A DNA stretch of 64,000 nt from Candidatus Obscuribacteraceae bacterium (GCA_044226015.1 JBGAHS010000006.1:128001-192000); one strand, 5' to 3'. Counted from the stretch's first letter, positions 11,507 through 57,854 are shown. The notes: generated by a model from the letters alone, not told the origin. A program made the numbers and translations.

Positions 11507-12292
11507 CTAGTCTTCGTTTTTGTTCTGCTTCTCTTCTTCGTCCTTGCGGCGCTGTTCAGCTTCCTCTTCGGCACGCCTATCCGCATCGGCTGAGCTCTTA
11601 TAAGCAGGAATCATGTACAGAAGGCGCTTATCAACTTCACCAGGTTTTTGAATATCGACCTGCCAATTATCACGAACCCAATTCAGCCAGGGACGATGGA
11701 TCTTTGCAATCGTCTCGCCGTTGTTGTTGGTTAGCGTAAAGTCAGTTGCAAGAAACTCGACCTTTTCAGAGGTGGCAATCTTGTTTCCTTTGTCATCTAC
11801 TATTGAATAGATGGTGTGTGGATGCCACCATGATTTGAAAACCTCTTCCTGGATGCCTCCGATTGATTTGCCATTTGCATCTGTGACATCAATTTTGGTG
11901 CCCCAACTGAATATGCGTTCTTTGCCAGTGGCTTGTGTTGCACCCGCAGCATCCTTATATTCAAATGTCTTGTGCAAATGGAGCATCTTTTGATCGACAA
12001 CACCTTCCGGTTTTCCATGCTCATCTTTTATGTCGAAGGTCCATCCCCAGGAAAAAACTCGGGATGACATTGTGTGATGTTCGGGAGCTTGAGCATCCGG
12101 TTGGGACCCAGCGACTGCTTGCTTTGGCTGCTTGTCAGCTACGAGAGTGAGCTCAGGCAATGACTGTGCACTTGCGCTGCGATGTCTATCGCGCCATTCA
12201 TCAAAAGATCTACCCGCATCAGGATCCAAATGTAGAAGTGCTTGTGTACCAGCTTTCTCTGTTCTGCTCGTATCCAATGCGCGGTCGCTCAT
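11507..12292 (-). CDS. LURP-one/scramblase (tubby C-terminal-like) protein with N-terminal extension
   Basis: Repeated FSWG..F.I.D..G...G beta-strand pattern; about 70-aa disordered leader. Confidence 0.75.
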   Translation of the reverse strand: MSDRALDTSRTEKAGTQALLHLDPDAGRSFDEWRDRHRSASAQSLPELTLVADKQPKQAVAGSQPDAQAPEHHTMSSRVFSWGWTFDIKDEHGKPEGVVDQKMLHLHKTFEYKDAAGATQATGKERIFSWGTKIDVTDANGKSIGGIQEEVFKSWWHPHTIYSIVDDKGNKIATSEKVEFLATDFTLTNNNGETIAKIHRPWLNWVRDNWQVDIQKPGEVDKRLLYMIPAYKSSADADRRAEEEAEQRRKDEEEKQNKNED

Positions 12293-12510
12293 ATCCAACC
12301 CCCTATCACAATCACAACTGTCACCCACCGCTATGATTTTCGATTATCGGAAGTCGGTCTATCAAGGCGCTAATTGGGAGGAATACCATGGCCGGTGGCT
12401 TAGCTTTGTCTCAGAGAAGTTAGGCTTAATGTTTCTCTGTCCTTTCCGATTTCAACGCTATTTGGTTTAACACTGCAGAGGAATAGCTATTCGTACCCAA
12501 TTGCTTCTCA

Positions 12511-13566
12511 TCAGGTGCTTCGACTAATGTGGGTTAGGACACCACCAATGGTGATCAGACCGATGCCTATGGCTCTGGTGTTGTTGAACTTTTCTTTCAA
12601 AACAAACAGCGCCAAAAGGTACATAACAATGGGATAAATGCCTGTGATTGCGATTACATATGATGCACTGGTCTTCGACAAAGCTACGAAATATGCAGCA
12701 CCACCACCGGCGAGGCATAGTGCCGATCGACTAGCCCAAGTCCATAATCCCATATTAGTGAAATGAAGAACATTACGTTTGTAGATCGCCCATGACACAA
12801 CCAAAAAACCAACACAAGAATCGCACAGATCCTTAGTGAGATTCACAACCAGCGGGTGAGCGTCTCCAAAACAAGCAAGCTTGTCAAATATGCCTCGGCT
12901 AGCCCAGCCGATTGATGCTACGGTCACACATAGGATAGTGAGTGCGACGCTCAGTCTGGCTTTAGTTTTTTCGTCGTGGTTTACACCATGAAGCCTTTCA
13001 ATCCTCTCTGCGGAAAGATCTGATTTATTTTCCGCCATCGCTTGAAAGCTTGATTCTTCAGTCGTGATGCTTGTTGGAACGCTGGATGTCTCTGCTGCTG
13101 CCGTTTCCATTGAATCAAATTCATGACTCGATTTTCCAAGTACAAAAATTCCGACCACAGCTACGCAGCAACCCATAAGGCGAATCGGACTCAGTGGTTC
13201 GTTCAGGAAGAGCATTGCCAATATTTGGGCGATTACCGGATAACTCGCTGTTGCACCGAGAATGAGGCTCGCCTCGGCTCTGGACAATGCAAATAGATAG
13301 GAAATGGTGGAAACAAAATAGACGACTGCGCCCATGCTCTCATAAAGAATCATTTCCCGGCTTATTTTCCAGCCAGGCGAAGTAAGCGTTAGCACTACGG
13401 ACAGTGTCAAAGCAATTAGAGGTGCAAAGCAATAAACTGCAGCCATTTGACCGACAGGAGATGTATAGCCAAGAGCCTTTTTATCGCAGATTCCCCACGC
13501 TCCCCAAAAGAAGAGACAAATGACGATCATCGAATTCAATAAGATTTCGTCCGAAATGCTCGTCAT
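12511..13566 (-). CDS. EamA/DMT family transporter
   Basis: Two 5-TM repeats (WGAWGICDK / WASRGIFDK; LFLNEPLS / FVLKEKF). Confidence 0.85.
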   Translation of the reverse strand: MTSISDEILLNSMIVICLFFWGAWGICDKKALGYTSPVGQMAAVYCFAPLIALTLSVVLTLTSPGWKISREMILYESMGAVVYFVSTISYLFALSRAEASLILGATASYPVIAQILAMLFLNEPLSPIRLMGCCVAVVGIFVLGKSSHEFDSMETAAAETSSVPTSITTEESSFQAMAENKSDLSAERIERLHGVNHDEKTKARLSVALTILCVTVASIGWASRGIFDKLACFGDAHPLVVNLTKDLCDSCVGFLVVSWAIYKRNVLHFTNMGLWTWASRSALCLAGGGAAYFVALSKTSASYVIAITGIYPIVMYLLALFVLKEKFNNTRAIGIGLITIGGVLTHISRST

Positions 13567-14327
13567 TTGATCTGAGTGCTGTTAGGTTTTGGCATTGTTT
13601 TGTTTGCATGCTTGTACAAGCTCCATATGCCTTTCAATGTAAGATGAGGATCTGTCCTTTCTATGGATTTACATAAAGGTGCAAGGTATTCAGACCAACC
13701 CCCAGTAGCAATCACAGCAAGGTCGTCGCCTAATTCTGTCTTGAATATTGATATCCAGTTTTCAACAATTCCAACATGGGCTGTAACAGTGCCCCTGCAA
13801 ATTGCCCCGTAAGAGTCATAAGCTGGTTCGAGTGATTTTGCCTGTCTCGGGTCGATTATCGGAAGTTCGGGAAGTGCCTCACTTAATTTGGCACAAATTG
13901 TTCCAAGACCTAGTGTAATGAAGCCACCTTTGAATTTGCCAGCGCGAGAAGCCGCTGTGATAGTGGTGGCAGTTCCGAAATCAATCGCCACGACTGGTCT
14001 ATCTCCTTCAAACATTTCCCAGGCTGCGGCTACATCAGCAATGCGGTCTGCCCCAATTCCCTCATAAAAACCTGAGACAGGCTCATGTATTTTTGCGCTT
14101 AACTCAAGGGCAACTTGTTTGGAATTCGACTCAAGCGCAGTCCTGATATTACGACTCACATGGCTTCGTACTGAGCAGAGCACCAGCGGAAACTCCGAAC
14201 TAGCAAGCTCTTTCAGGATGCTTTCGCTATCTCTTGTTGAGCTTCTCTCGACTTGTCCGACGTCTCCCTTTTCTATTACGGCGCGCTTTATTTCACTGTT
14301 TCCGACATCAACTGCGAGAATCTTCAT
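13563..14327 (-). CDS. coaX: Type III pantothenate kinase
   Basis: AVDVGNS, GADR, IDFGTATT, IATGG, PHLTLKG motifs. Confidence 0.92.
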   Translation of the reverse strand: MKILAVDVGNSEIKRAVIEKGDVGQVERSSTRDSESILKELASSEFPLVLCSVRSHVSRNIRTALESNSKQVALELSAKIHEPVSGFYEGIGADRIADVAAAWEMFEGDRPVVAIDFGTATTITAASRAGKFKGGFITLGLGTICAKLSEALPELPIIDPRQAKSLEPAYDSYGAICRGTVTAHVGIVENWISIFKTELGDDLAVIATGGWSEYLAPLCKSIERTDPHLTLKGIWSLYKHANKTMPKPNSTQIK

Positions 14328-15562
14328 TTTGATTGTTCCGGTCCCAACTTTTGGATTGCTCCCAGAAATAGAATACTGTCCGTGGTGTCGTCAGCAATAG
14401 CGAAAATAAACGGTCTGTCAACCGTCATACTAAACTTGTCGGGAATAAATCTTGCTGTTTCAGCCTGCATCACTACAGCGGTTACGGCAGCAGCTTCCGT
14501 GCCTTCTTCGTTGACCTGTACGTATGTTTTGTGCAAGACATCTGCGATGCGAATTTTTTGTGCAGTTTCAAACATAGGTGAAAAATCAGCCTGTTCGAAA
14601 GTGAATGCACGTGTTACTCCAAGCGATTTTAGTGCATCAACCAGCCCTTTGGAATACTCAAGCGTAAACCGAGGTAAGCCCAAATAGGCTTCTGGTTTAG
14701 TGGAGAATGAACTTTTCCACTTCTTCCAATTCGCAGCGGAAAACTGCTTTATGAGCTCATCCAATGCAGTTCCGGAATCTGGAAGAAAAATGTATGCCTT
14801 GAGTCTTTTTCCAGCGTAAGGAAGTGCTACTGCCTTGAAACCTTGCCCGACATATGCACTGAGATCACCTGATAGCGACATCATTTTTACGTTATTTTTG
14901 CTGCCGTCAGCGTTATGGAAAGGCGCGTCTGAACTAAGTTCTTTCTTAAAAGGAGTATTCCATTTGCCTTTGAAATAAACAGCATTTGCGAGAATACCAG
15001 CCAGGTCGCCTGGTGGCTTGTCAATAATAGATTTGATTTTCCCTTCCGTTTTCTCTTTTGCCCAATCGTTTACAGACTGGATTCCTTCAGGCTTATTGAG
15101 GGAAACAGTCTTGCATTCTGCAGAGAAATTACTCTTGCAATCGTTGATAAAAGCCGCTTTGAACTTGAATTGAGTGTCTGCAAAAATGGCATTGGCATTG
15201 GTGAATTTGCAAACATTTGATAATGACGCGATCGATTTGTTCAATTCGGCAAAGTTATTGCTATCAGCTTTGACGCCCAAATGAAGAGCTTTCCCTAATT
15301 CAGACTTGGTATCGCCATGTGCACCATACCAGGCCATCGAGCATGCGGTAGCAATGCTGTAAGGCGAAATGAATATGTTTTTCGTCTTAGCTTCGCTTTT
15401 CTGGAGGTAATGCAAAAGGTCAAATCCAAAAGAATTTTCTGCTGTTGCGAGCTGTGATGACTCATGCGAAACGTCAGCTGACGCCATTTGTACGGCACCT
15501 CCACCGAGAAGCAAACCAGCGATCAAACAGAAAATATGCTTTGTCGCGCCCACTTTCTTCAT
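14324..15562 (-). CDS. Secreted serpin (serine protease inhibitor)
   Basis: Signal peptide, NIFISPYSI, NAVYFKGKW, hinge EEGTEAAAVT, DRPFIFAI. Confidence 0.95.
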   Translation of the reverse strand: MKKVGATKHIFCLIAGLLLGGGAVQMASADVSHESSQLATAENSFGFDLLHYLQKSEAKTKNIFISPYSIATACSMAWYGAHGDTKSELGKALHLGVKADSNNFAELNKSIASLSNVCKFTNANAIFADTQFKFKAAFINDCKSNFSAECKTVSLNKPEGIQSVNDWAKEKTEGKIKSIIDKPPGDLAGILANAVYFKGKWNTPFKKELSSDAPFHNADGSKNNVKMMSLSGDLSAYVGQGFKAVALPYAGKRLKAYIFLPDSGTALDELIKQFSAANWKKWKSSFSTKPEAYLGLPRFTLEYSKGLVDALKSLGVTRAFTFEQADFSPMFETAQKIRIADVLHKTYVQVNEEGTEAAAVTAVVMQAETARFIPDKFSMTVDRPFIFAIADDTTDSILFLGAIQKLGPEQSK

Positions 15563-22891: not shown

Positions 22892-23971
22892 CTATTTCTT
22901 CTTGTCCGAAGGTGCCAGGCTTCTGGCGGCTCCCTTCAATTCCGGTGGAAGGTGATAATTCATCGAAACCAGTTCGCCCACAACTCGACGAGCTTCTTTC
23001 ACATTCGGGTCAGCCTCTAAAGCTTTAGCATCAACGCCGGCTTTGTCGTTCAAGTTCAAATATTTCTTGACGCTGTCTTGCTGAACAAGTTTGCCTAAAT
23101 ATGCTGCACGTGTGTCAGCAGAACTTACCAGGAGTCGTCCAGATTCCGCGTCGCTTGCATTGGCTTCTCTCATTTTTGAAACCTGATCTTTCAGCGACGG
23201 CTTCGCTGCAAGTTCGGCTTCTTTCGCCGCTAGCGCTGTTTCTTTTGCAGTTATCTCAGCCTGCCTTTCAGCGCTAGCAGATTTGCTTTGCTCAGCTCTT
23301 AACGTGGCTAATTCAGTCTGTGCCTGCTGATAGCCAGTCTCCCACAGGAATGCAGTTGTGTGACTCGACACAAACTTTTCGTTCTTCTCGATTTGCTGAG
23401 CCATTGCAACACGATCAAGTTTGTCGGCGCTTTCAATTGCTCGATTGAACTGCGCTCGGCTTGTGTCATCCAGAGTTGAGGTGGACTCGAGTTTCTTTAC
23501 CATTTCTGTAGGGTCACTTGATTCGAGTTTGTTCGCGACCGGTGAACCATTTTCGTAGCGCCTCAGCCCTGAACTGTCGTAAACAGCTTTGCCATCTGCT
23601 CCCAGCACTCTGCCTGCGCTATCTGTTTCAGCGTTGAGTTTGCCATCTTTTCTCACACTGCCATCATCATTTCTGAAAGGAGTGGCGCTTGAGCCATCAG
23701 GGTTTTTGCCCGACCAGGTGGGCAGGTGCAGCCCATGGTACTTAAGGTAACCATCTGCACCGATACTTGCTCCCGGAACGCCTTTGACAGGTCGGTCCGA
23801 GTCGCGCGATTCTTGCACCATTTTCTGAGGCGCTGTTGTGTCTTTGACTAGCGTGAGTTTTGGACCGCTAAAGACATCGTCCAGGAAGCGTTGCGCTGCA
23901 TTGTTTCCTTCGCTATTACTGTTATTCTCAAATTGATTTGCCAATTTGCTAGCTGGAATTACGTCAACCAT
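22892..23971 (-). CDS. Hypothetical protein (DG-rich beta repeats plus coiled coil)
   Basis: 359-aa ORF with RBS GGAGG; no Sec signal. Confidence 0.7.
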   Translation of the reverse strand: MVDVIPASKLANQFENNSNSEGNNAAQRFLDDVFSGPKLTLVKDTTAPQKMVQESRDSDRPVKGVPGASIGADGYLKYHGLHLPTWSGKNPDGSSATPFRNDDGSVRKDGKLNAETDSAGRVLGADGKAVYDSSGLRRYENGSPVANKLESSDPTEMVKKLESTSTLDDTSRAQFNRAIESADKLDRVAMAQQIEKNEKFVSSHTTAFLWETGYQQAQTELATLRAEQSKSASAERQAEITAKETALAAKEAELAAKPSLKDQVSKMREANASDAESGRLLVSSADTRAAYLGKLVQQDSVKKYLNLNDKAGVDAKALEADPNVKEARRVVGELVSMNYHLPPELKGAARSLAPSDKKK

Positions 23972-24730: not shown

Positions 24731-25360
24731 ATGTTCGAGAGTGAGAATGTGAAACCAGGCTTTTCCTCAGCGTCCGACTCGCTACGCGACCATCTGCAAA
24801 GCGAGAATTTCCTTGGCGCTAGAGGACTATCACACAGAGCTGCTGACCTGGATGAAGTTGATGACCTTCGCTCTGGTCACACAGAGCGCCATGCGGTGGA
24901 AAGGTTGTCTTTCACCCCTGATGAGCGTCCAAGAAAAGGTCTGGATGCTGATGCCGAATCAATCGCAAATCACCTCAATGAAGGGCGTTCAGATCTTGCT
25001 GTTAGCAAGTTGAGCCATGACATGATGCATTTGAGCGTTGATGATAGCAATCGATTGCTCGTAAAAGTCAGTCAAAATGAGTTTCCTGAAATCGAAAATG
25101 ATGACAGAGGACACCTGCTTCTGAGTGATTGGAATGAGAAATACAATACATGGACACAAGTTTATGTAAGTGAGAGAGACCAGCTTTATCGATTTGTACA
25201 ACCTGGTAACACACTTTCTTCTATTGCATCAGATAGGCTTGGCACAAACGATAAGGATGCAGTGGATAAATACGTGCAAAATATTGCAGCAGTTAACCAT
25301 ATTCCTGCTCCAGACCTCATTCTTCGTGGGCAGGCGCTCAGGCTTCCTTATCCCGCTTAG
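24731..25360 (+). CDS. LysM-domain protein
   Basis: C-terminal VQPGNTLSSIA...IAAVNHIPAPDLILRGQALRLP; start re-called to ATG 24731 (GGAG RBS). Confidence 0.8.
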   Translation: MFESENVKPGFSSASDSLRDHLQSENFLGARGLSHRAADLDEVDDLRSGHTERHAVERLSFTPDERPRKGLDADAESIANHLNEGRSDLAVSKLSHDMMHLSVDDSNRLLVKVSQNEFPEIENDDRGHLLLSDWNEKYNTWTQVYVSERDQLYRFVQPGNTLSSIASDRLGTNDKDAVDKYVQNIAAVNHIPAPDLILRGQALRLPYPA

Positions 25361-27527: not shown

Positions 27528-30065
27528 TTAAGACGAACCTTCTTGCTTGCTTACTGATTTTGCCAGAATTGCATTTGCAATGAGATAGATCAACGAAATT
27601 AGCGCAATCAGAAGACCTGCATAGAAAGGTTTGGGTACAAAGGTGAATCTTACTTCGTGCTTGCCAGGCAACAGGGAAACAGCACGGAAGAAGCTATTCG
27701 CACGGTATATCGGAGTGGTTACGCCGTCAATGGCGGCATTCCAGCCCTCATAATACTGATCGCTTAGTACGAGGTAGCCTGCTTGCTCGGAATTGACAGT
27801 TACAAGAACTGTGTTATTGCTGGAAGAGACAATTTGTGAAATATTTTCAGATGACTTCGACGGCAGCTTTTGAGCACTAGTTGCTGTATCAAGCTCGATA
27901 ATGGGCTGAGCTATAGGTTCGAATCTGTTTTTCCCAGCCTCAAACATCATGGATAGTGCTTCATCGTGTGATGCTGCTCTTCGCAAATTAGAGCAAAAAT
28001 AGGCACGCGGAGCTACCGACTTTAATTCGTAAAGCCGAATGTTGAGCCTTCGGTCCTCATTTATTAGTTGAAAATAGCGTGAGTCTAGCATTGGTACTAG
28101 CTCTAGTTGTGACGGAGTTTCGCTAAAACGAGTCGACTGAGTCAAAATAAACCGAGTAGCTGTTGCAAGGCAAAGTTTCGCTATCGGCTCGTCATCAGCC
28201 TGAGTACTGCTGATTCCCCTAGCCTGGCTTGATTTGGCATAACAGTTTTGCAGAAAATTGAAGTAGTCGCCTGTGCAGCTTGCTTCGAAACCGAAAGAGG
28301 AAAGCAGGCCAAAATCCATATTTGTATTTGGTCTGAGGATTTGACGACTGTACTGATATGCATTGATGGTAGCTTTTAGATTGTCATGCTCAGGGTTATT
28401 TTCATCGAGCACAGTGTTTGGAATGGTGAAATGTTCAAGATACAGACCCAGTACCCTGTATTCGTCTTTTTTATTTGCAGCAGTTCTTGCCAAGTACTTT
28501 TCTATCATTTGGGCAACAGCTGAACTCTTTTGGAAATAATTTCCATCCGCCGACTGTTCAGCTCTATGCATAAAAGGGTAAAGGAATAGACTCAGTGAAG
28601 CGGAAACCAGCACGCAGATCTTAAAACACTTTAGTGAGAGTTTTCTCCAAACGAAAGCAATACCGAGCAGGTTAAGTACGAGTCCGCCAATACCGTAAAT
28701 CAGGCATGATTTTGACATTTGTGAATTTGCTAGTGCCACCGCGTCTGGTGCAAAATTCAGGTACGCGTAGGGCAAGATTGGGACATTAGAACTCAGAAGT
28801 AAACCTGAAATGATCAGCACGAGCCAAACTGCAGCAGCTGCAAGAAAAGGACGAAACCCAGAGAGTGTGTCATCAATACCCTTTGCGGCGAACACTGCAA
28901 GAAATCCGACAAAGAAGAACATATGCTTTACAGGAAATCTGATTGGCAGATTGATAATGCTCAAAACTGCAGGCATTACGATCGTATTTTGACCCAGTGC
29001 TAAAAAGCCAAGCAAAACAAGCAACATGGCGAGCAGCGTTTTGCTTTTCCAGTTTTTATCAAATAAGCTCCAAATTGCAGCACTTATTAAGACGGGTCCC
29101 AAAAAGCAAGAACCCACATAGGGCAGCATTTGTCCTTGCATCACAAGGTTTCTAAACTCGGAATAGCGCAACTGTAAATTGCCCAGGGGTTGTGGCAAAA
29201 TTACACCAAGCAGGTCATACCAATTTGCGCTCAGCGTAAGAGTTTCATTCACGCTCAATCCGCTCTGTCTTCGTGATTGAGCAAGCCATTCTGCCGTTGG
29301 TAGCAACATGGGAGTCGCCAGCATGAAACCAAAGAAGAGAGATCTTACCTGGGTAAGCAGTGTCTGCTGAGCAGCTAGTGGATTGTCTTTTCGCCGCCTA
29401 ACGTAAGAGTGAAGAATCAAAAGTGTCAGCAATGCTATCTGCACCATGCTTATATCGGGCGACCCTGCAAGTATTTGCAACGCCACGAACACAGAGCTGA
29501 TTAATACTTCCCAGCTGCATTTTTTGTTTCTGTCTGAAATCTTGAGTTCGATCAGGCGCATCCCCCAAGCAGACAAAGGGCACCATGCCGCACTTTGAAT
29601 AATTTGAAATTCGGTGCACATCGAGAATGCGTAACCAGACATTGCAAAGGAAATAGCCGCAAGAAGAGCTGCTGCTGTTCCAAGCTCATAGCTGCTTAAC
29701 AACAAAAATGCACCAATTCCGAGCAAAAGCTGGTGAAAAATCATCGAAAGGGCTAAAGTGCAGTTGAAGGGTAAAATGGAAAAAATCCATGTGAACGGAT
29801 AGCAAATTCCCTGCAACGGAATGGCAGTTTGAGGCATGCCGCAGTAATTTAGCGGGTTCCATAAAGGGAAGTCGAGCCTGCGGATAGACTCTCCGACGAA
29901 TTTAGCCAATGGCTCAACGAAGTGAGTACCGTCTAGGTGAAAGATAGAACAGCTGCCATTTAGCCAGGGAAAATAGAAAGCAATCAAAACTAACGTTTGA
30001 AAAATTGCATAAAGAAGAAGCGAACGCGCTCTGCCACCTTTTGCAATTACGTTATCTGATTTCAA
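27528..30065 (-). CDS. YfhO-family membrane protein (GT-C glycosyltransferase-like)
   Basis: PLWNPLNYCGMP, many TM helices, C-terminal LVLSDQYYEGWNAAIDG...GKHEVRFTF. Confidence 0.85.
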   Translation of the reverse strand: MKSDNVIAKGGRARSLLLYAIFQTLVLIAFYFPWLNGSCSIFHLDGTHFVEPLAKFVGESIRRLDFPLWNPLNYCGMPQTAIPLQGICYPFTWIFSILPFNCTLALSMIFHQLLLGIGAFLLLSSYELGTAAALLAAISFAMSGYAFSMCTEFQIIQSAAWCPLSAWGMRLIELKISDRNKKCSWEVLISSVFVALQILAGSPDISMVQIALLTLLILHSYVRRRKDNPLAAQQTLLTQVRSLFFGFMLATPMLLPTAEWLAQSRRQSGLSVNETLTLSANWYDLLGVILPQPLGNLQLRYSEFRNLVMQGQMLPYVGSCFLGPVLISAAIWSLFDKNWKSKTLLAMLLVLLGFLALGQNTIVMPAVLSIINLPIRFPVKHMFFFVGFLAVFAAKGIDDTLSGFRPFLAAAAVWLVLIISGLLLSSNVPILPYAYLNFAPDAVALANSQMSKSCLIYGIGGLVLNLLGIAFVWRKLSLKCFKICVLVSASLSLFLYPFMHRAEQSADGNYFQKSSAVAQMIEKYLARTAANKKDEYRVLGLYLEHFTIPNTVLDENNPEHDNLKATINAYQYSRQILRPNTNMDFGLLSSFGFEASCTGDYFNFLQNCYAKSSQARGISSTQADDEPIAKLCLATATRFILTQSTRFSETPSQLELVPMLDSRYFQLINEDRRLNIRLYELKSVAPRAYFCSNLRRAASHDEALSMMFEAGKNRFEPIAQPIIELDTATSAQKLPSKSSENISQIVSSSNNTVLVTVNSEQAGYLVLSDQYYEGWNAAIDGVTTPIYRANSFFRAVSLLPGKHEVRFTFVPKPFYAGLLIALISLIYLIANAILAKSVSKQEGSS

Positions 30066-31152
30066 AAAGGTTTTCTCCTGGAGCAGAGATTGCTGTAGTC
30101 ACAGGCTCTCGAGCGAACGAAACAAACACCGATTCATTCACGATTTGCGCTTTTTGACTTTGTACTGTTATGCACGAGTTGAAAAAATCATCTATTCGAG
30201 TTGCTAGCGAAGAATTTTTCTCAACATGTCTAGCATAATAAATGAGTGATGAGACCGCAGTTCGCTGCTTGAGGGGGTCCCACAACTCCACTATGCGAAG
30301 TAAGTCATCAGCGTCTAATGCTTTCAATCCGAGTTGTTGAATCATTTTACGCGCTTCAGCCTTGAATGACTTCGCTACAACAATTCCAAGGGTGCCACGA
30401 ATACCAGTGGCATTAGCGAACGCCTCAAGGTCGACGACATCGTCCGGTTTTAATTCAAACTGTTTGACCTCAGCTGATATTGCTAGTTGTGCTCCGTCCC
30501 AGCCGTCTATGTCACCTACACGTTGCAATCGCTTAGAACCAGTTCTGACTTTATCTATTTCTATTTGCAAATGTGGGTTATCAGCTCTCAGAAATCCAAA
30601 TACAATTCCCTGGAAGGCTGCACCTGTAGGTTCATTTTTTCTGGCGGTGAGATCAAAACTCTCAAGCAACAATCGAAACAAGGCTGGTTCTGTTCGCACA
30701 GTGGACGGGTCAAAGCTCTGGTCTTGCAAGGTTCGAAGAACATAGTCGGCGACAAGTGCGCGCAATTCGTTCAGTTCATTTTTAGTGAATGCTGCCAGTC
30801 CGTCTAGCCAAGGAATGTAATCTATCCAGGCTTGTGTTGCGTGCGGCGCACAGCTAGGATAGTCAAATCGACTGTTCTCTGCACGGAAATATCTTTCAAT
30901 TTGGTTGTAGAAAGGACGCAAGCTCAATGTTCCGCCTTCTGGCAATGCCAGAATCAGAGTGTTAGCTCTTGCACCGCTCGCGGTGGCATCCTGTTTTGGG
31001 AATATTTTCAGTACGTCATCGAAACAACTACAGTTCAACTCTGGTATTCCGAGTTCATAGTAAAAATCAATGAAGGCTATTAAAAGCCCAGCTGAGAATT
31101 TCCGCTTAGAAAAGCCGGTGGTAAACTCCGTGAAAATGTCGTCAACAAGCAT
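30052..31152 (-). CDS. Putative restriction endonuclease (PD-(D/E)xK-like)
   Basis: GDIDG...AEVK motif; coupled to the MTase stop codon (TAATG overlap). Confidence 0.6.
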   Translation of the reverse strand: MLVDDIFTEFTTGFSKRKFSAGLLIAFIDFYYELGIPELNCSCFDDVLKIFPKQDATASGARANTLILALPEGGTLSLRPFYNQIERYFRAENSRFDYPSCAPHATQAWIDYIPWLDGLAAFTKNELNELRALVADYVLRTLQDQSFDPSTVRTEPALFRLLLESFDLTARKNEPTGAAFQGIVFGFLRADNPHLQIEIDKVRTGSKRLQRVGDIDGWDGAQLAISAEVKQFELKPDDVVDLEAFANATGIRGTLGIVVAKSFKAEARKMIQQLGLKALDADDLLRIVELWDPLKQRTAVSSLIYYARHVEKNSSLATRIDDFFNSCITVQSQKAQIVNESVFVSFAREPVTTAISAPGENLFEIR

Positions 31153-32159: not shown

Positions 32160-32344
32160 GGACACTCCAACGATTCTATACAGCAGAGTATTTCCTAATA
32201 CTCTTCGCATATCTTGTCGGCAGGCATTTCTTATTCAATAGATATAAATGCTACTGCTCAGAATTGGCTATACAAGCCAGTTTTGACCGACTGAATGATT
32301 ATGAATCGAAAGCGAGTTCTTGTCCACTGAGATAAACAAAACAA

Positions 32345-38282: not shown

Positions 38283-38338
38283 ACTCCTCACCAACTTTCT
38301 AGGGGGTTAAGACAAACTTGACTTATGTCCAGCAGTCT

Positions 38339-38743: not shown

Positions 38744-38798
38744 TTACCTCACCGTTCTTTCTATTAGAGTGCAGGCGAGCCTGCAGGACCAGGTACCG

Positions 38799-39185: not shown

Positions 39186-39266
39186 TTGCTCTTACCACCT
39201 TGGAACCGAGGATGGGAATAACCATCCTCGGTCGAGTTAACTACAATCCTTGTGGGACCATCCCAA

Positions 39267-39656
39267 TTACTCTTCCTTGAATGTGAAAGAGTCTTTAGAG
39301 AACGGTTTTTCGTAGCCGGTCTTCACACCATGCCATCCACCGTCAAACAAGCCATAAGCAGCACCGCCAGCGATACCAAATGGAGCTGCGAGAATTGCAC
39401 CGCCCCAAGTTTGATAAGTACCGTCTTCGTCGCCGAGCTTACCAGCCATCCATTTTGTTGACATCATTGCGCCCTTGACACCATCTCTCACAGCGCCTTC
39501 CGGTACTCCGATTACAGCGCCAACGCCGGAACCGACAACTCGTACTGGGAAGAAGCAAATTGATTGAAAGGTATCATCCGAAGCGAATGAAGGAGCAACC
39601 GTGGCGCCGACAATTGTCGAGGCTAGTAAAAAAGAGGTCGCTAATTTCCTTACCAT
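39267..39656 (-). CDS. Secreted glycine-zipper hairpin protein, paralog A
   Basis: Signal peptide (PSFA); FPVR...VPEG...GKLGDEDG...HGVKTGYEKPFS. Confidence 0.8.
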   Translation of the reverse strand: MVRKLATSFLLASTIVGATVAPSFASDDTFQSICFFPVRVVGSGVGAVIGVPEGAVRDGVKGAMMSTKWMAGKLGDEDGTYQTWGGAILAAPFGIAGGAAYGLFDGGWHGVKTGYEKPFSKDSFTFKEE

Positions 39657-40338
39657 GAAAATCTCCATCTCTTAGCAATCTTCAGAACAATCCTGGACCA
39701 CCCCGGCCTCAAGACAGCACCATTGTACCTATTTTCTGCATTTGGTCCATATTTTGTTTTCAATCTAAGATCAAGCAAAGAGGTGCTTTTTCTACGCCTG
39801 CTAAGCCTTTTCACCATTTAAACAAGAAAGAAAAAGATTTTCTGTTTTCGCAACTTTTCGATCGAAATTGCGTCGGAGATATCTCATTTATATTGAATGT
39901 CACTTGTCATGTGAATGACAGCCTATATGTCAATATACTGGAAACTGTCATCTTGTGAGCATTATCAGACTGCTTTAGGCTAAGAAGGAGTAAATTTCCT
40001 GGTATCAAAGGCAGTGCCATTCCATTTGGAACAGAAGCAGAACTGTTGCCGGATCTGACACCAAATATGGTTTTATTCAAAAAACAACTATATAAGAAGA
40101 GTCTTGAGGGAAAGCGCGTCCTAGATCGCACTGGAAGAATCTCTTCCTATTTATATGAATAAGCATAAGCCAAATTTCGGAGCTTGACTCTTATCCTGGG
40201 GCTGCCGTAAGCGTACTAATCGTACTAAGCCTGCTGACCGCAAGCAAAGCCAAATAGCTCAGCTTGCAAAAGGTACCTAAAGTAAAAACAGACTCGTTCT
40301 ATCTAATGAACCGTGCCACCGCACAAGCCACCACTGCA

Positions 40339-48587: not shown

Positions 48588-49574
48588 TTGACCGAAACAT
48601 TTGAACTTTCCGCAAAATCAGCGGAGCGCCACAATTTGTCCAAAAACGTAATCGAGCAGGAAGATTCGCATCTTCGCCTTCTGAGTGATGTCTTTGCGCC
48701 GCCCTCGATGTTGAAAAAAGTAGAAATTTGCCAAGCCGATGATGGCAAACTGAACTTTCCGCCGCTAGTAGCTGAGAACTCAGAACAAAATAGTTGGCGA
48801 TGGAAACCTCCTCAAGGCATTTTGATGGAGCGCTCTCTAAACTTGAACCTTACGAAGGAAGAAAAAGAAAGAATCGGAAAGAAGATCTGGCAGAACGAAT
48901 CCAGCGGAACATTCGAAGGACTCACAGCCTGGAACAAGGGAGAAGAGTTTCCTTCACTTGGAATAGGACACTTCATTTGGATGCCCAAGAATGTCGATTT
49001 GCCCTTTGGCAATAGCTTTCCTGAAATGATCAAATCAATGCGAGATGCAGGTTCAACCCCTCCAGCATGGCTTAAGGAAAATGACCCGTGCCCATGGGAC
49101 ACGCGCAAGGAGTTCATGCGTGATTTCAACGGCAAGAAGCTTACTGAATTGAGACAGTACCTCAATGACACAGTCGGACTTCAGACCGACTTCATCATCA
49201 ATAGGCTGGAAGTTTCCCTTCCCAAAATACTTGACACGATTAGCGACCCGGCCGAAAAACAAAAGGTTCAAGATCGCTTCTATAAAGTGTTGAATAGCGG
49301 TCCGGCTGGGGTATTCTGTCTGGTCGATTACGTCAATTTCAAAGGCGAAGGGCTAGAGCCCGTTCCCGAATACAACAATCTTTCCTGGGGACTGAAGCAA
49401 GTTCTTCAGGGAATGACTGACACTGATAATCCAATCAAAGACTTTTCCGATTCTGCCAAAGCAACACTGAGTAACAGAGTCAAGAATGCTCCAAAGCATC
49501 GGCATGAGGAGCAATGGCTCAAGGGTTGGCATAATAGAGTCGACAGATATGTCACTGATCCACCACTTAGGTAG
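48588..49574 (+). CDS. Hypothetical protein, possibly lysozyme-like fold
   Basis: IWQNES...WNKGEEFPSLGIGHFIW, DYVNFKGEG, WLKGWHNRV; fold assignment is inference. Confidence 0.55.
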   Translation: MTETFELSAKSAERHNLSKNVIEQEDSHLRLLSDVFAPPSMLKKVEICQADDGKLNFPPLVAENSEQNSWRWKPPQGILMERSLNLNLTKEEKERIGKKIWQNESSGTFEGLTAWNKGEEFPSLGIGHFIWMPKNVDLPFGNSFPEMIKSMRDAGSTPPAWLKENDPCPWDTRKEFMRDFNGKKLTELRQYLNDTVGLQTDFIINRLEVSLPKILDTISDPAEKQKVQDRFYKVLNSGPAGVFCLVDYVNFKGEGLEPVPEYNNLSWGLKQVLQGMTDTDNPIKDFSDSAKATLSNRVKNAPKHRHEEQWLKGWHNRVDRYVTDPPLR

Positions 49575-50664: not shown

Positions 50665-50669
50665 ATTCC

Positions 50670-51195: not shown

Positions 51196-52776
51196 ATGGA
51201 CGATATCACAAATACTCAAAAAAAGGCTTCTGACCACGATTTCAAATCTGTCGCTTGGATTGATTCACCAGTGAATGCCAACAAAAATGAAGAAAAGGCA
51301 GCCCTTGCAAAAATGGAAGACAGGTCGAACGTGGCTCTTGCAAAAATGCTGCCTTCACTTGAGATAATCGGCTTCACTAGAGCAGAAGTTAAGGTTGAAA
51401 ACCGTGCCGCAAAATCAAATGATGCTGGCAACAAAATTCCAGCAGCACCATGTGTCACTACAAATGAATTTGCAGGCATTGCTAAAGGGCTCTTGAAGAA
51501 AGCTGATAAGGATAAAGATGGACACGTTAGTAAAACGGAACTCGCTGCAGCACTGCAAGATCAATCAATCAAAGGAAAGGATGCACAGGTTCTCTCTGCG
51601 CTCTACAATGGTTTTGATAAGATTCACAACCTCAGCAAACATGAATATGTTTGGAACAAAGCGACCATTACCGATGGTGACATAGACCGCTTACAAGAGA
51701 AGATGAGCAAGCGCGATGTGGATGTGCTTGCCGCTCTAAACATGCGAGCTTGGGCACAAACTAATTTGAAGAGCTTTGCCGCAGATGGCGAAAAACTTAC
51801 TATGAATGATCTCAATAATGGACTAGCTCGTAAAAATCTCTCTGAAACTGATAGAGCAACTTTGACTCTCATCAAATCTAGATTCAATGAAATTGCTGAA
51901 AACTATGGGCTTCCGCTGATTGGAACCAAGGGCGCAAAACTTGAAGATTTCAGTTCTTTTGCAGATAAGGTCTGGTCCAATTCCCCAGATGCAAAAATCG
52001 CTATGAATATTCAGGGCGTAATGCGCCGAACCAATTTGGAAGCTCAAACAGGACAAACTTCAAGTGACCTCTTTGCTGACGGGCTCAACAGCGTGAGACC
52101 TGATGCCATCCGGCAAGGTGGCATTGGCGATTGCTATTTTGAGTCAGCACTGGCGGCGGTGGCAGTTGCAAACCCGAAAATCATCAAGGATATGATCAAA
52201 GAGAACAAAGATGGTTCTTTTACTGTCACATTTCCGGGCGCAAACAAGGAAGCAATTACCGTTAGCAAGCCCACTGAAGCGGAACTCGGACTCTACAATG
52301 GAGGAAGCTCGCACGGACTTTGGGCAGCAGTGTTGGAAAAAGCATATGGTCAATATCGAGACAATCACGCCTGGATAGGAAGCTACACGCCGCAAGAGGC
52401 CTCCGACGGGGGCGGGCGCCCTGAACCAGTAATTGAGTTGCTCACAGGTAAGGACGCATCGTGGAAGAGCGTTAGCGATCAAAAGTCGGTCGCACGTGAT
52501 CTTGAGAATGCGTTCAAAACAGGAAAAGCCGTAACAGCTGATATTTATCGCGACCCGTGGGATCTCATAGGCTTGGGCAAGACTGAGACGAACGATAAAT
52601 TCTATAAAGGTCATGCTTACTCAATCACAGCATTTAAACCAGATGGCAAAGGCGGCGGCGTAGTCACGATACGCAACCCATGGGGCGGAGAGCATGGCAG
52701 CACATCAGGTACCATCGATGTTCCTCTAGACAAGTTCATGAAAAACTTTTCGGCTTATTCAATCCAGAACAGATAA
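51196..52776 (+). CDS. Calpain-like (peptidase C2) cysteine protease with EF-hand
   Basis: QGGIGDCYF, GHAYSI, IRNPWG; EF-hand DKDKDGHVSKTE; paralog of 32840..34705. Confidence 0.92.
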   Translation: MDDITNTQKKASDHDFKSVAWIDSPVNANKNEEKAALAKMEDRSNVALAKMLPSLEIIGFTRAEVKVENRAAKSNDAGNKIPAAPCVTTNEFAGIAKGLLKKADKDKDGHVSKTELAAALQDQSIKGKDAQVLSALYNGFDKIHNLSKHEYVWNKATITDGDIDRLQEKMSKRDVDVLAALNMRAWAQTNLKSFAADGEKLTMNDLNNGLARKNLSETDRATLTLIKSRFNEIAENYGLPLIGTKGAKLEDFSSFADKVWSNSPDAKIAMNIQGVMRRTNLEAQTGQTSSDLFADGLNSVRPDAIRQGGIGDCYFESALAAVAVANPKIIKDMIKENKDGSFTVTFPGANKEAITVSKPTEAELGLYNGGSSHGLWAAVLEKAYGQYRDNHAWIGSYTPQEASDGGGRPEPVIELLTGKDASWKSVSDQKSVARDLENAFKTGKAVTADIYRDPWDLIGLGKTETNDKFYKGHAYSITAFKPDGKGGGVVTIRNPWGGEHGSTSGTIDVPLDKFMKNFSAYSIQNR

Positions 52777-52836: not shown

Positions 52837-54717
52837 TCAATCAAAATGAGATGGTCTCTGATAGGGCTGCATAATTAGATAGTCGAACTCAGAAAAGTTA
52901 TTTTTGCCATAGCCGGGTTGATCGGAATGAAGCCAACTCAGCCCTCTGATTGTTGGCGCCTTGTCCAGTGGCACAGCGGTTGCAGCTGAGGGCGTAAACA
53001 GATTTCTCATGGGCTCTTCGCGGAAGAAATTATCATGCTGTCCGTAGAAAGTAGTCAATGGAACTCCGCGGTCGCGCAAGATTTTTGCAACTTGAGGTCC
53101 CTCTGCAGTCGCATCGACCATGTGCAGATGTCTGTTTCCGACCCAGAAAAGAACATTATTGTCTGGATTTTTCAATAATCCTTGCAGCTCCTTCGCCATC
53201 GTTTTGTTTCTCGAAAGCAAATCTGCTTTAGTTCCATCAATGGGCACAACCTGAATGCCCTCTTTCTTCGCCACTTCCAACATTCGTATGTACTCGTAGT
53301 GTTGAAGAAGTACTGGTAGTGAATTCACATCGACGGATCCATCAGGCTTGTAAATTCGCCCCTTAAAAGGTGTTGTATGCTCGATTGCAAGATGCGTCAG
53401 TCCGCCCTCTTTCTTAAGCTGCGGCAAGAGCCTTGCTGCCATATTTCTATGCTCGCTGTCCATAACATGATACTCGCCTACCATGACTAATCGATCTCGC
53501 TTGAGAGCGGATACCAGAGCCATACCAGGATTCTCACCGTGGGACTCAACTTCAGCGCGAATGCTTGCAGTCAGTTCGCGTTGGATATCCCATTTGGACT
53601 TTGCCTCTGCGGGTGGCTGCTCAGTTTGGGCTGCAGCTTTTGGCTGTTCTAAACGTTCTGACGCCGAAGGGACCTTTGAGGCTTTAGAAGCAGAGACTAG
53701 TTCAGTCTTTCCACCATCTTGAGCCGCTGAATCCAGAAGTATTTTCACATCTGGGCGCCTCGCACTTACGATAATGTTCTTACCTTCGTTGAGCCATTTG
53801 GGATCTGTCACCACAATAGTGTGATCTTTCGGAGCTTTGTAGATTGCAGCGCTCAGTTTGTCGTACCAACCACCCGGTGACGAAATTACAGTGACCTTGG
53901 GATCTGAAGCCAAAAGGCGAGGCAAATCTATTTCGGCAGGCGGCGATTTTGTTGCAAAATGTTTGAGTAAAGTTCCGCCACCATCAAATGCGGCACCAAA
54001 AGCAGCATAAGAAAGCGCTGAAGTCAGCAAGTCCTCTTTTGAGGCTTTGAAGCCGGTCTTTAATTCGATATCTGTGACACCAGCGGCAGCTCCGGAAACG
54101 CCACCAATGAGGATTTTCCGAGGCAGTTCAAATGCAAGACCAGTTCCTAGTGAAGGAATTCTGCGCTCGAGTCCAGAAGAAATGCCAGCCATAGTGGCAA
54201 AAGTAGCCGCACTAATAGCTCCCTCTTTTAGCCTGGACGACAAAAGGCTTTCCCCAGGTTTCAACTCGCTGAGGTTCAGAAGAGATCCAGTCAAAAATCC
54301 GGCCGTAGCTTGCTCACCAACAACCCGGTAAATAGAGGGATTTGCAGCTTCACCGAGCAACGCAGTGCCAACACGCCGTGTAGCAAAGCTCGCTGCAACG
54401 AAGGGAACTAGTGAGCCAAGCACCTTTCCAGCTTGCTCTTCGCCACTGACTTTCTTGTTTTCCTCTTTAATCTCAGCGCCTAAGAGCTGCTGAACGGCTT
54501 GTGCAGGGCGTTTGAAAGCACCATCTGCAACGCCATTAAAGAAAGCCTCATAACCTCTCTGAGCCTCCTTTTGAAGCAACGAACTTGTTTGCAACCGTGC
54601 TTCTGTGAACGATAGCCCAGATAGCCCTAACGTGTTTAATTCAGAGTCTCGTCCAAATGCGGACGCAGCACTTTCTACTTCTCTCACCAGCCCGCGTACT
54701 CCCGTCTCTGCACACAT
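52837..54717 (-). CDS. Protein with hydrophobic Gly/Ala-rich N-domain and C-terminal ChaN/EreA/Tiki-like domain
   Basis: C-terminal VMVGEYH....H, LAIEH, RNKTMA, FWVGNRHL match the Tiki/EreA/ChaN motif order. Confidence 0.6.
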   Translation of the reverse strand: MCAETGVRGLVREVESAASAFGRDSELNTLGLSGLSFTEARLQTSSLLQKEAQRGYEAFFNGVADGAFKRPAQAVQQLLGAEIKEENKKVSGEEQAGKVLGSLVPFVAASFATRRVGTALLGEAANPSIYRVVGEQATAGFLTGSLLNLSELKPGESLLSSRLKEGAISAATFATMAGISSGLERRIPSLGTGLAFELPRKILIGGVSGAAAGVTDIELKTGFKASKEDLLTSALSYAAFGAAFDGGGTLLKHFATKSPPAEIDLPRLLASDPKVTVISSPGGWYDKLSAAIYKAPKDHTIVVTDPKWLNEGKNIIVSARRPDVKILLDSAAQDGGKTELVSASKASKVPSASERLEQPKAAAQTEQPPAEAKSKWDIQRELTASIRAEVESHGENPGMALVSALKRDRLVMVGEYHVMDSEHRNMAARLLPQLKKEGGLTHLAIEHTTPFKGRIYKPDGSVDVNSLPVLLQHYEYIRMLEVAKKEGIQVVPIDGTKADLLSRNKTMAKELQGLLKNPDNNVLFWVGNRHLHMVDATAEGPQVAKILRDRGVPLTTFYGQHDNFFREEPMRNLFTPSAATAVPLDKAPTIRGLSWLHSDQPGYGKNNFSEFDYLIMQPYQRPSHFD

Positions 54718-55792: not shown

Positions 55793-56866
55793 ATGGTTGA
55801 ACTACCAGGAAGGGTTGAAGCTGGTAAAAACAAAGAAGAATCTTTTGAACCTGCGGAGCTTGCCATTCGCGTTTGGGATTCGATTGCCTCCGAAATTTTC
55901 AAGCCTCATAGCAAATCTACTGCCAAGACAGCAGAAAAAGAATCAAGTAATACCTGGTCGGCTAAAGATAGCAAAGCCACTAGCGAGAAATCAGAGTATA
56001 TTCACAACAAAGCTTCTGTAGATGTCTCAAACGCAGAGTTTATTCGTAGCAATCCTGAATTGAAAGGAAAACCTTCCTCGGAGTGGAGCAAGGACGGAAA
56101 TTACAAGCTCAGGCATGCCACCACGGGTGAAGTCGATTCTGCTTGGAAGCTCACTGGTGTAAAAGGAGATGGAAGTGTTCAGCTTCAGAAGGATTATCGC
56201 TTAGAGGTCGCAAGCAAGAAAGATCATAGTGATTTGATCGAATCTATTCCTGGTGTTCAAGAAAAGCATGTAAAAGCTCTCGAGGCTAAACTAAATGAAC
56301 TTCCAGCGAACGTAAAGACAGCGCTGAAAGATGCTGGCTATAAGATTGTCGCCACCAGATTTAATACCGATGCAATTCCGGAACTCAAAGCACTTCATCC
56401 GAGAGGATGGGATCCCAGCGGTAATTTTGACACATCTGACGGAACACACGATAACGTCAGGCGGCTCATCCTTGCCCCTTACAGTTTCGTAAACAACAGA
56501 AGCGTAGAAGCCGTTTCTCGACCAGATGTTCTGGTTCACCAAATCGGGCATGCACTGGACCACGCGCTCGGAAAGCTATCAAACAAGCCAGAGTTTCAAG
56601 AAGCATTCGCTAAAGACATGCAGCAAATGGCAAAGAAAGAGCTAGATGATCGCGAAGAGGCGATTTTCTCTTATTTCAGCCAGAAGAAAGGTCCTGTTAA
56701 AGGCGAAAATCCTGGAAGTGAAGAGTGCTTTGCATCGTTATTCGGACTCGTGTTGACTGGTCCAGAGAATCCCATCGATAAGAAAGCCTTTGAGAACAAC
56801 TTTCAAAACACAATTCAGGTAGTGAAGCGACAGATTAAAGCACTTGGATCAGAACCAGGCAGATAG
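55793..56866 (+). CDS. Anthrax lethal factor-related (ATLF/PPEP-like) zincin domain protein, HQxxH variant
   Basis: PRGW, VLVHQIGHALDH, F...F..D, YF....EECFASLF. Confidence 0.75.
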   Translation: MVELPGRVEAGKNKEESFEPAELAIRVWDSIASEIFKPHSKSTAKTAEKESSNTWSAKDSKATSEKSEYIHNKASVDVSNAEFIRSNPELKGKPSSEWSKDGNYKLRHATTGEVDSAWKLTGVKGDGSVQLQKDYRLEVASKKDHSDLIESIPGVQEKHVKALEAKLNELPANVKTALKDAGYKIVATRFNTDAIPELKALHPRGWDPSGNFDTSDGTHDNVRRLILAPYSFVNNRSVEAVSRPDVLVHQIGHALDHALGKLSNKPEFQEAFAKDMQQMAKKELDDREEAIFSYFSQKKGPVKGENPGSEECFASLFGLVLTGPENPIDKKAFENNFQNTIQVVKRQIKALGSEPGR

Positions 56867-56999
56867 AGCGTTTTCAGCCCCAGAACATTAACGTCAAAAA
56901 AGACATGCGTGGTTCCCCTTATGGACCGGACTGCGTTTCAAAGAATTTTCAAATTTGGTGAATAGATTTAGCCCATAACTTCTATAGGGCTTGGTCAAA

Positions 57000-57854
57000 A
57001 TGGGAAGACACAGCGCAGTCGAATCACCTGTATATCAGGATAGTTTCACATCTGGCGGTAGAGATAACTTTGATTCACCTATGGCTTACGACAGAAGACC
57101 AGTGGTCGAACGTTGCGCCGATCTAACAGCAAATTCAAGCAATACAAACGCGAGCGATGACTTCTATTCTAATCGCACCCGCGTAACTGCTGAAGATAAA
57201 AGCGGGGTGCTTGTAATGCCGCCCTGCAGTGAATATCAGAAGCAATGCCGCGAACCAGTTGTGGTGATCAACAACTATAACGTTCAAGACGAGTACAATT
57301 CTCGCTATGACACAGGCTATCAGAATGGGCGTGCGCAGTATGCTTGCAATCGCCGCTACTATGAACCGCAATACAACGAGCAATACAATCAGTATCAGAA
57401 CCAGTATCGAGCGCAATACTATAATCAGTACCAGAACGGGTACAACGCACAGTACTACAACCAGTACCAGAACCCGTACCAGAACCCGTACAATGCGCAG
57501 TACTACAACCAGTATCAAAATCCATACAATTACAATCAGTACTATAACCAGTACCAAAATCCGTACAATGCGCAGTACTACAACCAATACCAGTACTACA
57601 ACAACCCCTATCAAAACTACAACTCATGCTACCAGGGACGATACTACCAACCCTACTATTACAATAACTGCCAAGGAAGCACATTCAGCAATCTAGCTGG
57701 CATGGCAATTAGCATGGGACTGGGAATTGCAGGCTCTGCTATTTGGAATCACAGATACAATCGCGGTCACCATAATTACAACAACTACAATAACTACAAC
57801 AATAATTGGTATCGCAATCAGATGCCATTTGCACGAGGACGACACCACTGCTAA
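57000..57854 (+). CDS. Tyr/Asn/Gln-rich low-complexity repeat protein
   Basis: Repeats of NAQYYNQYQNPY; C-terminal hydrophobic helix LAGMAISMGLGIAGSAIW. Confidence 0.75.
   Translation: MGRHSAVESPVYQDSFTSGGRDNFDSPMAYDRRPVVERCADLTANSSNTNASDDFYSNRTRVTAEDKSGVLVMPPCSEYQKQCREPVVVINNYNVQDEYNSRYDTGYQNGRAQYACNRRYYEPQYNEQYNQYQNQYRAQYYNQYQNGYNAQYYNQYQNPYQNPYNAQYYNQYQNPYNYNQYYNQYQNPYNAQYYNQYQYYNNPYQNYNSCYQGRYYQPYYYNNCQGSTFSNLAGMAISMGLGIAGSAIWNHRYNRGHHNYNNYNNYNNNWYRNQMPFARGRHHC

Follow-up and report, generated by a model that had tools for sequence, protein, structure and literature searches.

A polar leader without a signal peptide recurs at the N-termini of proteins with mostly unrelated cargo in a Candidatus Obscuribacteraceae bacterium, and this leader is very probably an export tag. 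In a 64,000-nucleotide stretch of the genome (JBGAHS010000006.1:128001-192000, hereafter the window), a first-pass annotation had proposed that about ten dispersed open reading frames (ORFs) begin with such a leader, ending in one of two alternative short motifs. Scoring the whole genome, we find a single bipartite leader, an amphipathic helix core with an optional strand, on 156 of 5657 proteins. The exporter that we favor is the domesticated type IV secretion system (T4SS) of the order Obscuribacterales; that this machine reads the tag and delivers hydrolases and toxins to the cell surface or to neighboring cells we hold to be about an even chance. Members of the order are uncultured, non-photosynthetic relatives of cyanobacteria, reported from sludge and lakes and described, in the accessible text of PMC4040986, as versatile respirers and fermenters.

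The source genome (G000) has 8.19 Mb, 47% GC and 92% completeness, and the window corresponds to C9:128001-192000 in it. A purpose-made caller gives 5661 genes with approximate start positions, of which 5657 were scored.

The leader, its cargo and its distribution

The consensus order of the leader is an acidic polar tail (net charge -1.9, against a comparison value of +0.3), an amphipathic helix ([SDE]-A-S-x-[ARK]-L-x-x-[ED]-[ASL], median start at residue 26), a polar linker and, in a subset of carriers, a strand ([LF]-[PG]-x-L-x-[LIF]-x-[DG], median position residue 56). Dozens of proteins with this layout surfaced on sorting LP-motif proteins by N-terminal polarity. We seeded two models, a bipartite one and a helix one, with 32 hand-picked sequences outside the window and cross-validated both by contig; the strict cut-off is a helix score of at least 12 or a bipartite score of at least 16. 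A single position weight matrix was overfitted to its 32 seeds and was dropped in favor of the cross-validated models. As controls we use internal protein segments, composition-preserving shuffles, and conserved or core genes.

Of 5657 N-termini, 75 reach a bipartite score of at least 16 and 113 a helix score of at least 12; the corresponding counts are 7 and 6 for 3183 internal segments, and 2 and 12 for 5657 shuffled N-termini. Among conserved genes, 2 of 36 and 2 of 140 are positive, the same two false positives in both sets. The leader is clearly commoner at real N-termini than at shuffled or housekeeping ones, which answers an objection raised with the first-pass annotation. Helix and strand co-occur: strand scores of at least 12 are found in 27 of 162 helix-positive and 16 of 4505 helix-negative proteins. 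The strict union of both models has 156 proteins with about 23 expected to be false, the loose union 294 with about 112, and from these expected-false counts we estimate some 135-180 true carriers. A hydrophobic N-terminus is present in 1 of the 156 leader proteins compared to 1727 of the 5501 others, and a transmembrane helix in 5 of 156 compared to 1737 of 5501. A second objection, that the true starts lie downstream of the leaders, was checked against strong Shine-Dalgarno sites, which stand at the called start of 84 of 156 leader genes and at the first Met past residue 60 in 3 of 132, a support that is partly circular because the gene caller itself uses these sites.

The two motifs of the first-pass annotation fare differently. 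LPxLx[IL] has a preferred position: it occurs in 47 of 4230 proteins at residues 16-85 against 23 of 4230 at residues 126-195, with a peak of 17 at residues 51-60 where the remaining 10-residue bins hold 1-9. GxLx[FM] as a motif of its own is not enriched (122 against 123 for the same two ranges) and is present in 1 of the 23 closest homologues of ORF 48588 (window ORFs are named by their 5' coordinate and are described below), while the helix pattern is kept in 19 of the 23. A likeness remarked on in passing, between RFLDDVF and RLLSDVF in ORFs 23971 and 48588, is the core helix itself. As scored here, the pattern is one bipartite tag, helix core plus optional strand, and it replaces the two alternative motifs. 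No Pfam or NCBIfam model matches leader sequences, and leader genes do not cluster with one another (26 of 156, where the null has mean 17 and maximum 31).

Some ORFs of 66-91 residues consist of little beyond a leader, as at L064:1441-1662 and L065:1474-1674, and in G000 at C12:529969, C12:398649 and C10:10217. These tag-only ORFs are possibly decoys, structural substrates or gene-birth intermediates.

For the cargo, we scanned 85 hand-chosen carriers and paralogues against Pfam, omitting high scorers that looked false on inspection, a ligase and an epimerase among them. Matches are found in 22 of the 85 and the other 63 have none. The families are Tiki/HopBA1, trypsin, M4, M28, clostripain (C11), calpain, GH25, GH73, lytic transglycolase, NS endonuclease, LysM, RHS and a few others, and later scans added kumamolisin, HEAT, FHA, annexin, an EDR1-like peptidase and a deaminase toxin. 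The carrier of this C-terminal deaminase toxin (PF14424) is followed, with zero gap, by an SMI1/KNR4 (SUKH immunity) gene, and this is the one locus with the C-terminal toxin and adjoining immunity gene of a polymorphic toxin system. At the other extreme from the tag-only ORFs are giant signal-less leader proteins, at C12:364671 (7753 residues), C9:323696 (5850 residues) and C11:406378 (5065 residues) of G000 and further ones at C3:280331, C3:294415 and C5:113839; several giants join RHS, FHA, LysM, annexin or ATLF-like domains.

Further signs of export come from the families to which carriers belong. Sixteen extracellular-type families seeded from carriers have 110 members, of which 49 carry a leader at the loose cut-off, 14 a weak leader, 16 a hydrophobic signal and 31 neither. 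The leader fraction of 49/110 (34/94 without the seeds) compares with 294/5657 genome-wide. For ORF 48588, the nearest 23 of the 120 homologues listed include 16 with a leader, 1 with a hydrophobic N-terminus and 6 with neither, and the farther 97 include 76 hydrophobic, 1 leader and 20 with neither; in this family the leader stands where distant homologues have Sec-type signals. At 30 calpain loci of relatives we find Sec-type signals in genomes G002, G009, G027, G080 and G045, leaders in G108, G051 and G067, and many polar N-termini with neither. Calpains from the sister family and outgroup family f3 (L180, L195, L177, L197, L198) likewise lack a signal, and their polar N-termini do not fit the leader model; they may carry a different tag. 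The proposal of a lineage-specific, non-Sec export tag on an effector-like set is borne out, at the level of sequence, by the exchange with Sec signals, the enrichment in extracellular families and the recurrence across the family.

A leader hidden Markov model (HMM) matches in 8 of 23 family genomes and in none of 97 other genomes of the class. All 12 matches of the first HMM are at N-termini, two of them being tag-only ORFs of 66 and 73 residues. An enlarged HMM that includes rows from nine relatives extends this to 14 of 23 family genomes at E ≤0.5; inspection of 19 of its new loci shows 17 to be clear leaders at N-termini, with one unclear and one, outside the order, false. In total 15 of 23 family genomes are leader-positive, counting G067 by its calpain alone. 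Sampled DNA of two outgroups has essentially no leaders, the HMM finds 5 matches among 1.84 billion proteins, all kin of the training rows, and an ESM Atlas search with one leader returned no usable match. The leader appears to be confined to one family.

The ten reading frames of the window

Every motif cited in the first-pass annotation is present at its ORF, and none of the ten ORFs shows a signal-peptide-like N-terminal stretch on reading the sequence. The leader itself holds for part of the set. Two ORFs pass the strict cut-off (12292 and 23971), 51196 falls just under it, 48588 has its leader from an upstream start, four are intermediate (24731, 55793, 54717 and 34907), and 34705 and 57000 are unsupported. 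Below, scores are cross-validated unless stated, and pairs of scores refer to the two models.

11507-12292, minus strand: scramblase/LURP-like protein; bipartite score 18.5; LPELTLVAD at 12134-12160; Pfam Scramblase E 2e-4, below cut-off.
22892-23971, minus strand: protein without known family; helix score 19.8; AQRFLDDVF at 23870-23896, with GPKLTLVKD (23840-23866) immediately after the helix; a domain in common with the leader protein C7:558233.
24731-25360, plus strand: LysM protein (over Pfam cut-off) with a probable leader; helix score 9.2, in the top 3.4% of N-termini; helix at 24770-24796, ERLSFTPD at 24899-24922.
32840-34705, minus strand: calpain with EF hands (PF00648); polar signal-less N-terminus, no scorable leader (-0.3/-1.3 from the called start 34684, 1.9/1.5 from 34705).
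34907-35482, plus strand: member of a five-gene family with a variant leader (GAVTEAF ... LFGDIEIMD at 35066-35092); bipartite score 3.9, its four paralogues 9-21.
48588-49574, plus strand: predicted GH46 chitosanase/lysozyme-like enzyme; helix HLRLLSDVF at 48669-48695; helix score 14.7 from a TTG start (full model, no cross-validation).
51196-52776, plus strand: calpain with EF hand (PF00648, E 1e-16); bipartite score 14.6, matched or exceeded by 0.4% of internal controls; LPSLEIIG at 51349-51372.
52837-54717, minus strand: Tiki/ChaN-fold protein (under Pfam cut-off) with a weak leader; helix score 4.4-5.8.
55793-56866, plus strand: Pro-Pro endopeptidase/ATLF-like protein; helix score 5.1; WDSIASEIF at 55874-55900.
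57000-57854, plus strand: Tyr/Asn/Gln-rich low-complexity protein; leader unsupported (1.0/-6.5); neither Pfam match nor paralogue.

The cargo domains named for these ORFs stand for the two calpains and LysM, which are over the Pfam cut-offs, and stay below them for the scramblase and Tiki/ChaN. ORF 55793 had been labeled ATLF and credited with a polar leader lacking a clear motif. We find there a helix-only leader of intermediate score; the protein has no Pfam match, and its label draws on a match to a Pro-Pro endopeptidase, which we take to be an ATLF-family enzyme (PDB 6fpc, E 3e-4), with a non-canonical zincin motif. The start of ORF 48588 agrees with most of its 23 closest homologues, which are called from the equivalent position. 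Its AlphaFold2 model has pLDDT 85.5, with residues 1-50 under 55, and the top 11 Foldseek rows are chitosanases at weak E-values (0.09-0.3). In ORF 54717 the leader is followed by a Gly/Ala-rich domain of about 200 residues that 14 proteins have in common; their C-termini mostly differ (12 C-termini fall into 10 clusters). FLPQM, cited as the leader motif of ORF 34705, is not supported by the scores of that ORF.

Elsewhere in the window, all on the minus strand, 37836-39668 has four tandem paralogue-like genes of 128-148 residues without Pfam match, whose products start with a hydrophobic stretch and contain hydrophobic segments rich in Gly. The genes at 30052-32210 are a DNA methylase (PF01555) and, after it, a 366-residue gene without Pfam family that may encode a restriction enzyme. 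At 14324-15562 a serpin has a signal-like N-terminus; secreted-type proteases are numerous in this genome.

Type IV secretion operons and other candidate exporters

The first-pass annotation likened the leader to the type III chaperone-binding beta-motif. The layout is indeed alike, and no such machine was found: the type III export gate FHIPEP (FlhA/SctV) was not found in G000 and has no match over cut-off in 25 genomes of the order, with one weak partial match, and the class I chaperone family YbjN (PF10722) was not found in G000, CesT not having been searched. Nor did we find in G000, at its 92% completeness, the type VI or extracellular contractile injection markers PF05943 (TssC) and PF04984 (contractile sheath). 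For type VII, WXG100 (PF06013) was not found and no FtsK/EccC-like protein was recognized in Walker-A lists. Among the 156 leader proteins, none has two or more of the GGxGxD repeats of repeats-in-toxin (RTX) proteins (ABC/HlyD/TolC sets were not profiled) and none has the twin-arginine (Tat) motif RRxF[LIM]. What G000 has is a type IVa pilus locus, two Tad loci, two secretins (one RcpA-type) and two T4SS operons. It also has four membrane-anchored FtsH-like AAA proteins beyond the canonical-looking one, at C11:193789, C6:736424, C6:836288 and C9:22868.

Both T4SS operons are chromosomal and lie outside the window (L092-L095). Operon B (G000 C10:63035-90085) has relaxase-like, VirD4, VirB8-like, VirB4, PrgI/VirB3-like, DUF2225, extended VirB6-like and VirB2-like genes, the last a pilin candidate. 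Operon A (C1:182285-205260) has a second VirB4 plus VirB8-, PrgI- and VirB6-like genes, and the VirB6-like genes in G000 number 3 + 6. The VirB2, VirB3, VirB6 and VirB8 labels come from size, membrane helices and conserved gene order, with no Pfam or NCBIfam match. VirD4 is matched by PF02534 (E 2e-15), PF12696 and PF10412, and its homologues carry that name in the source databases. The VirB4 paralogues, missed by PF03135 and found through the Walker-A listing, match P-loop_TraG/TraC Pfam over cut-off; NCBIfam VirB4 models stay below their cut-offs, the best scores being with CD1110 and TraC models, both also below. VirB4-A of the G000 assembly has two in-frame stops, which are absent from contigs of runs X1 and X2 (X2 from another sample), so the gene is probably intact.

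The operons have the distribution of core genes throughout the order. All 23 family genomes have both VirB4s, as does one of two sister-family genomes, the other showing one match; outside the order there are weak (25-29%) VirB4 matches in 5 of 95 other class genomes, and no VirD4 ortholog in 150 other genomes of the phylum. Among relatives, VirB4 paralogue B is 78-91% identical, the VirD4 core 76-92%, and the gene order of operon B is conserved. Variants include a tandem duplication of VirB4-A in a same-genus relative (G108:C3, L260) and, in G084, G092 and G051 (L251, L257, L264), the same inserted block of about 15 kb between VirD4 and the relaxase-like gene, with metabolic-looking genes and two MinD/CooC-like ATPases. 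A plasmid-like contig (G000 C2:2054-6038) has its own relaxase-like and coupling-protein-like genes.

One T4SS component co-varies with the leader. Every one of the 15 leader-positive genomes has a VirB6-B 68-93% identical to that of G000, while the identity is 44-60% in seven of the eight leader-negative genomes, leader-negative meaning no match to the leader HMM, an insensitive criterion. In a two-marker FastTree, leader-negative genomes form four nested lineages, and the seven genomes with diverged VirB6 make up three of the four, with marker genes no more distant than usual. Tad genes do not follow: TadC identity over 10 genomes is 52-63% versus 56-63%, with no drop matching VirB6-B, and the RcpA secretin over 25 genomes shows no divergence drop in the leader-negative lineages. 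Because VirB6-B and not Tad diverges in three of four leader-negative lineages, we favor the T4SS, which, given export, is on balance the probable exporter. Where an entirely uncharacterized secretion or predation system had been proposed, the system is then not wholly uncharacterized, and the domesticated T4SS is the leading candidate.

It is established that coupling proteins recruit T4SS substrates (PMC12857230, PMC8740702, in their accessible text). In the mechanism that we propose, the unfolded leader would stay uncleaved, its helix docking on the coupling complex, either on VirD4 or on an adaptor such as the DUF2225 protein, and the alternating-hydrophobic strand would add to a sheet of that complex. 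VirD4 and VirB4, driven by ATP, would push the cargo through a VirB6/VirB8 channel, with release at the cell surface or into a contacted cell; the purpose may be antagonism or predation on bacteria, or the release of degradative enzymes. Co-folding of the VirD4 core with a leader scored 0.00, which speaks neither for nor against binding. We advance tentatively, and with somewhat less confidence than the T4SS reading itself, a wider picture in which the Obscuribacterales are contact-dependent antagonists or predators, a Gram-positive-type conjugation machine with two VirB4s having become a protein injector in a diderm, with 140-200 effectors, from 66-residue tag-only ORFs to 7,700-residue giants, and a new N-terminal T4SS signal.

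A number of observations weigh against export by the T4SS. The VirB6-B correlation amounts to few independent events on a two-gene tree with an insensitive definition of leader-negative, and a conserved VirB6 persists in G112 (88% complete) and in G015, where no leader was detected. The T4SS is retained, with a VirD4 core 76-83% identical, in genomes without a detected leader, where sampled genes give few helix scores of at least 12 (1 of 332 in G080, 0 of 136 in G045 and 0 of 133 in G015, the one being false), and G080 shows leader-like proteins by eye although it is HMM-negative. The relaxase-like (Replic_Relax) gene of operon B is kept in 23 of 25 genomes of the order, which points to DNA transfer, and leader genes are not clustered at T4SS loci (2 of 266 genes flagged). 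No outer-membrane core complex of the T4SS was identified; for VirB7/9/10 there is a weak TrbI match in a 14-member family, and the model of the operon-A lipoprotein that some source names call TolC consists of a helical hairpin and an Ig-like domain, with CusC matching at no more than Z 6.5. On the cargo side, there is no excess of small immunity-like genes downstream (14 of 162 versus 196 of 2247), the 31 of 110 extracellular-family members noted above have neither leader nor hydrophobic signal, and some giant carriers have FHA or HEAT domains, which are usually intracellular. The single RNA run (X5) covers only a fur-rubrerythrin stretch and no leader gene, which is no proof of silence. Finally, T4SS signals are described mostly as C-terminal in the accessible text of PMC8740702 and PMC10025392.

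The alternative that survives best, though unlikely, is that the T4SS moves DNA only and the tagged proteins leave by an unrecognized machine, such as an undescribed translocon, an ABC/type I-like system or vesicle loading. The retained relaxase-like gene and the persistence of the T4SS where leaders are scarce would fit it, our survey consists of nine marker families plus Walker-A patterns in a 92% complete genome, and several extra FtsH-like AAA proteins are unexplained. Against it stands the VirB6-B divergence that follows leader scarcity in three of four lineages; the leader proteins lack RTX repeats and Tat motifs, and no other translocation ATPase candidate is prominent.

Export of the tagged proteins by the Tad (Flp-pilus) or type IVa pilus/secretin machinery is in our view quite improbable. 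The Myxococcus Kil system, in which a Tad-like machinery reportedly carries out contact-dependent killing, would be the model. G000 has the two Tad loci, the RcpA-type secretin and the type IVa pilus locus, one CpaF paralogue is kept across the order, and TadE/TadG-like genes lie within T4SS operon A of G000. But CpaF occurs in 61 of 120 class genomes and the leader in one family; Tad locus 1 was not found in leader-positive G067, G033 and G084, nor the locus-2 CpaF and RcpA secretin in G076 (87% complete), also leader-positive; Tad genes are no more diverged in the leader-negative lineages than elsewhere, and Tad is not known to have an inner-membrane channel for signal-less proteins.

Still a little less probable is that the leader serves cytoplasmic proteins as a tag for docking, localization or degradation. 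Such a role would agree with the rarity of immunity genes and with the FHA, HEAT and annexin-like domains that some carriers have; against it stand the swaps of the leader with Sec-type signals inside families, its enrichment on peptidoglycan and protein hydrolases, and the carrier that is a toxin with an adjoining immunity gene. An artefactual origin of the leader, from polar disordered N-termini, start calls placed too far upstream or the expansion of paralogues, is highly improbable and largely refuted: the motifs are degenerate as well as short, some 23 of the 156 carriers are expected to be false, and two of the ten noted ORFs and one of the two noted motifs fail, but cross-validation, shuffles and internal controls hold, the cargos are mostly unrelated with independent N-terminal matches in other genera, and Shine-Dalgarno sites stand at leader starts.

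Comparison with known systems

With the leader as a search handle, one can look for a hidden secretome that makes up about 2.5-3.5% of the proteome, consists mostly of orphans and offers a source of new antibacterial hydrolases and toxins. Its members are candidate cargo for one of the lineage-wide domesticated T4SSs, which lack known substrates, and the operons merit study whatever their cargo. If the T4SS does export them, an uncleaved N-terminal signal would be unusual for such a system, and the size of the repertoire would approach that of Legionella in a non-pathogen. In our literature searches, with subscription papers and supplements outside their scope, we found no description of the leader or of an Obscuribacterales T4SS.

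The systems below are compared as far as the accessible text of each source describes them. The antibacterial X-T4SS of Xanthomonas and Stenotrophomonas (PMC8740702) is likewise chromosomal and has one signal on many unrelated toxic effectors. Its signal is recognized by the VirD4 coupling protein, as we propose here. The X-T4SS signal (XVIPCD) is a folded C-terminal domain of about 120 residues, whereas the leader is N-terminal, short and predicted to be disordered; the X-T4SS is a class A VirB1-11 machine, while the VirB4s here are nearest to CD1110 and TraC models, below cut-off; and immunity genes are rare here. The T4SS of Patescibacteria, the Candidate Phyla Radiation (PMC12857230), is also chromosomal and lineage-wide, with a Gram-positive-like set of VirB3, VirB4, VirB6, VirB8 and VirD4 and a VirB2-like pilin, and also has a role other than ordinary plasmid transfer. 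Its host is monoderm and that source gives no known cargo, whereas the host studied here is diderm (it has LpxA) and combines a large tagged repertoire with two VirB4 operons and a relaxase-like gene.

The rvh T4SS of Rickettsiales (PMC11077975) is similarly order-wide with duplicated VirB4, and also has VirB8 duplicates, multicopy VirB6 and effector secretion. Unlike the system here, it has VirB9 and a standard vir-type build; the likeness seen is in component duplications, and the accessible text describes no shared N-terminal tag. Vampirovibrio chlorellavorus (PMC4451040) belongs to the same class, and its hydrolases are proposed to enter prey via a T4SS. That T4SS is T-type and partly plasmid-borne, with no substrate signal described in the text available, and the VirB4 here matches only weakly outside the order. 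Type III signals (PMC10025392) combine an uncleaved polar N-terminus with a docking element within the first 100 residues, as proposed here for the leader. They are mainly polar and uncharged, whereas the leader has its acidic tail of net charge -1.9, and the export gate and a YbjN-type chaperone were not found here. Judged by these comparisons, the leader would work like the X-T4SS tag and is laid out like a type III signal, and it fits the definition of neither.

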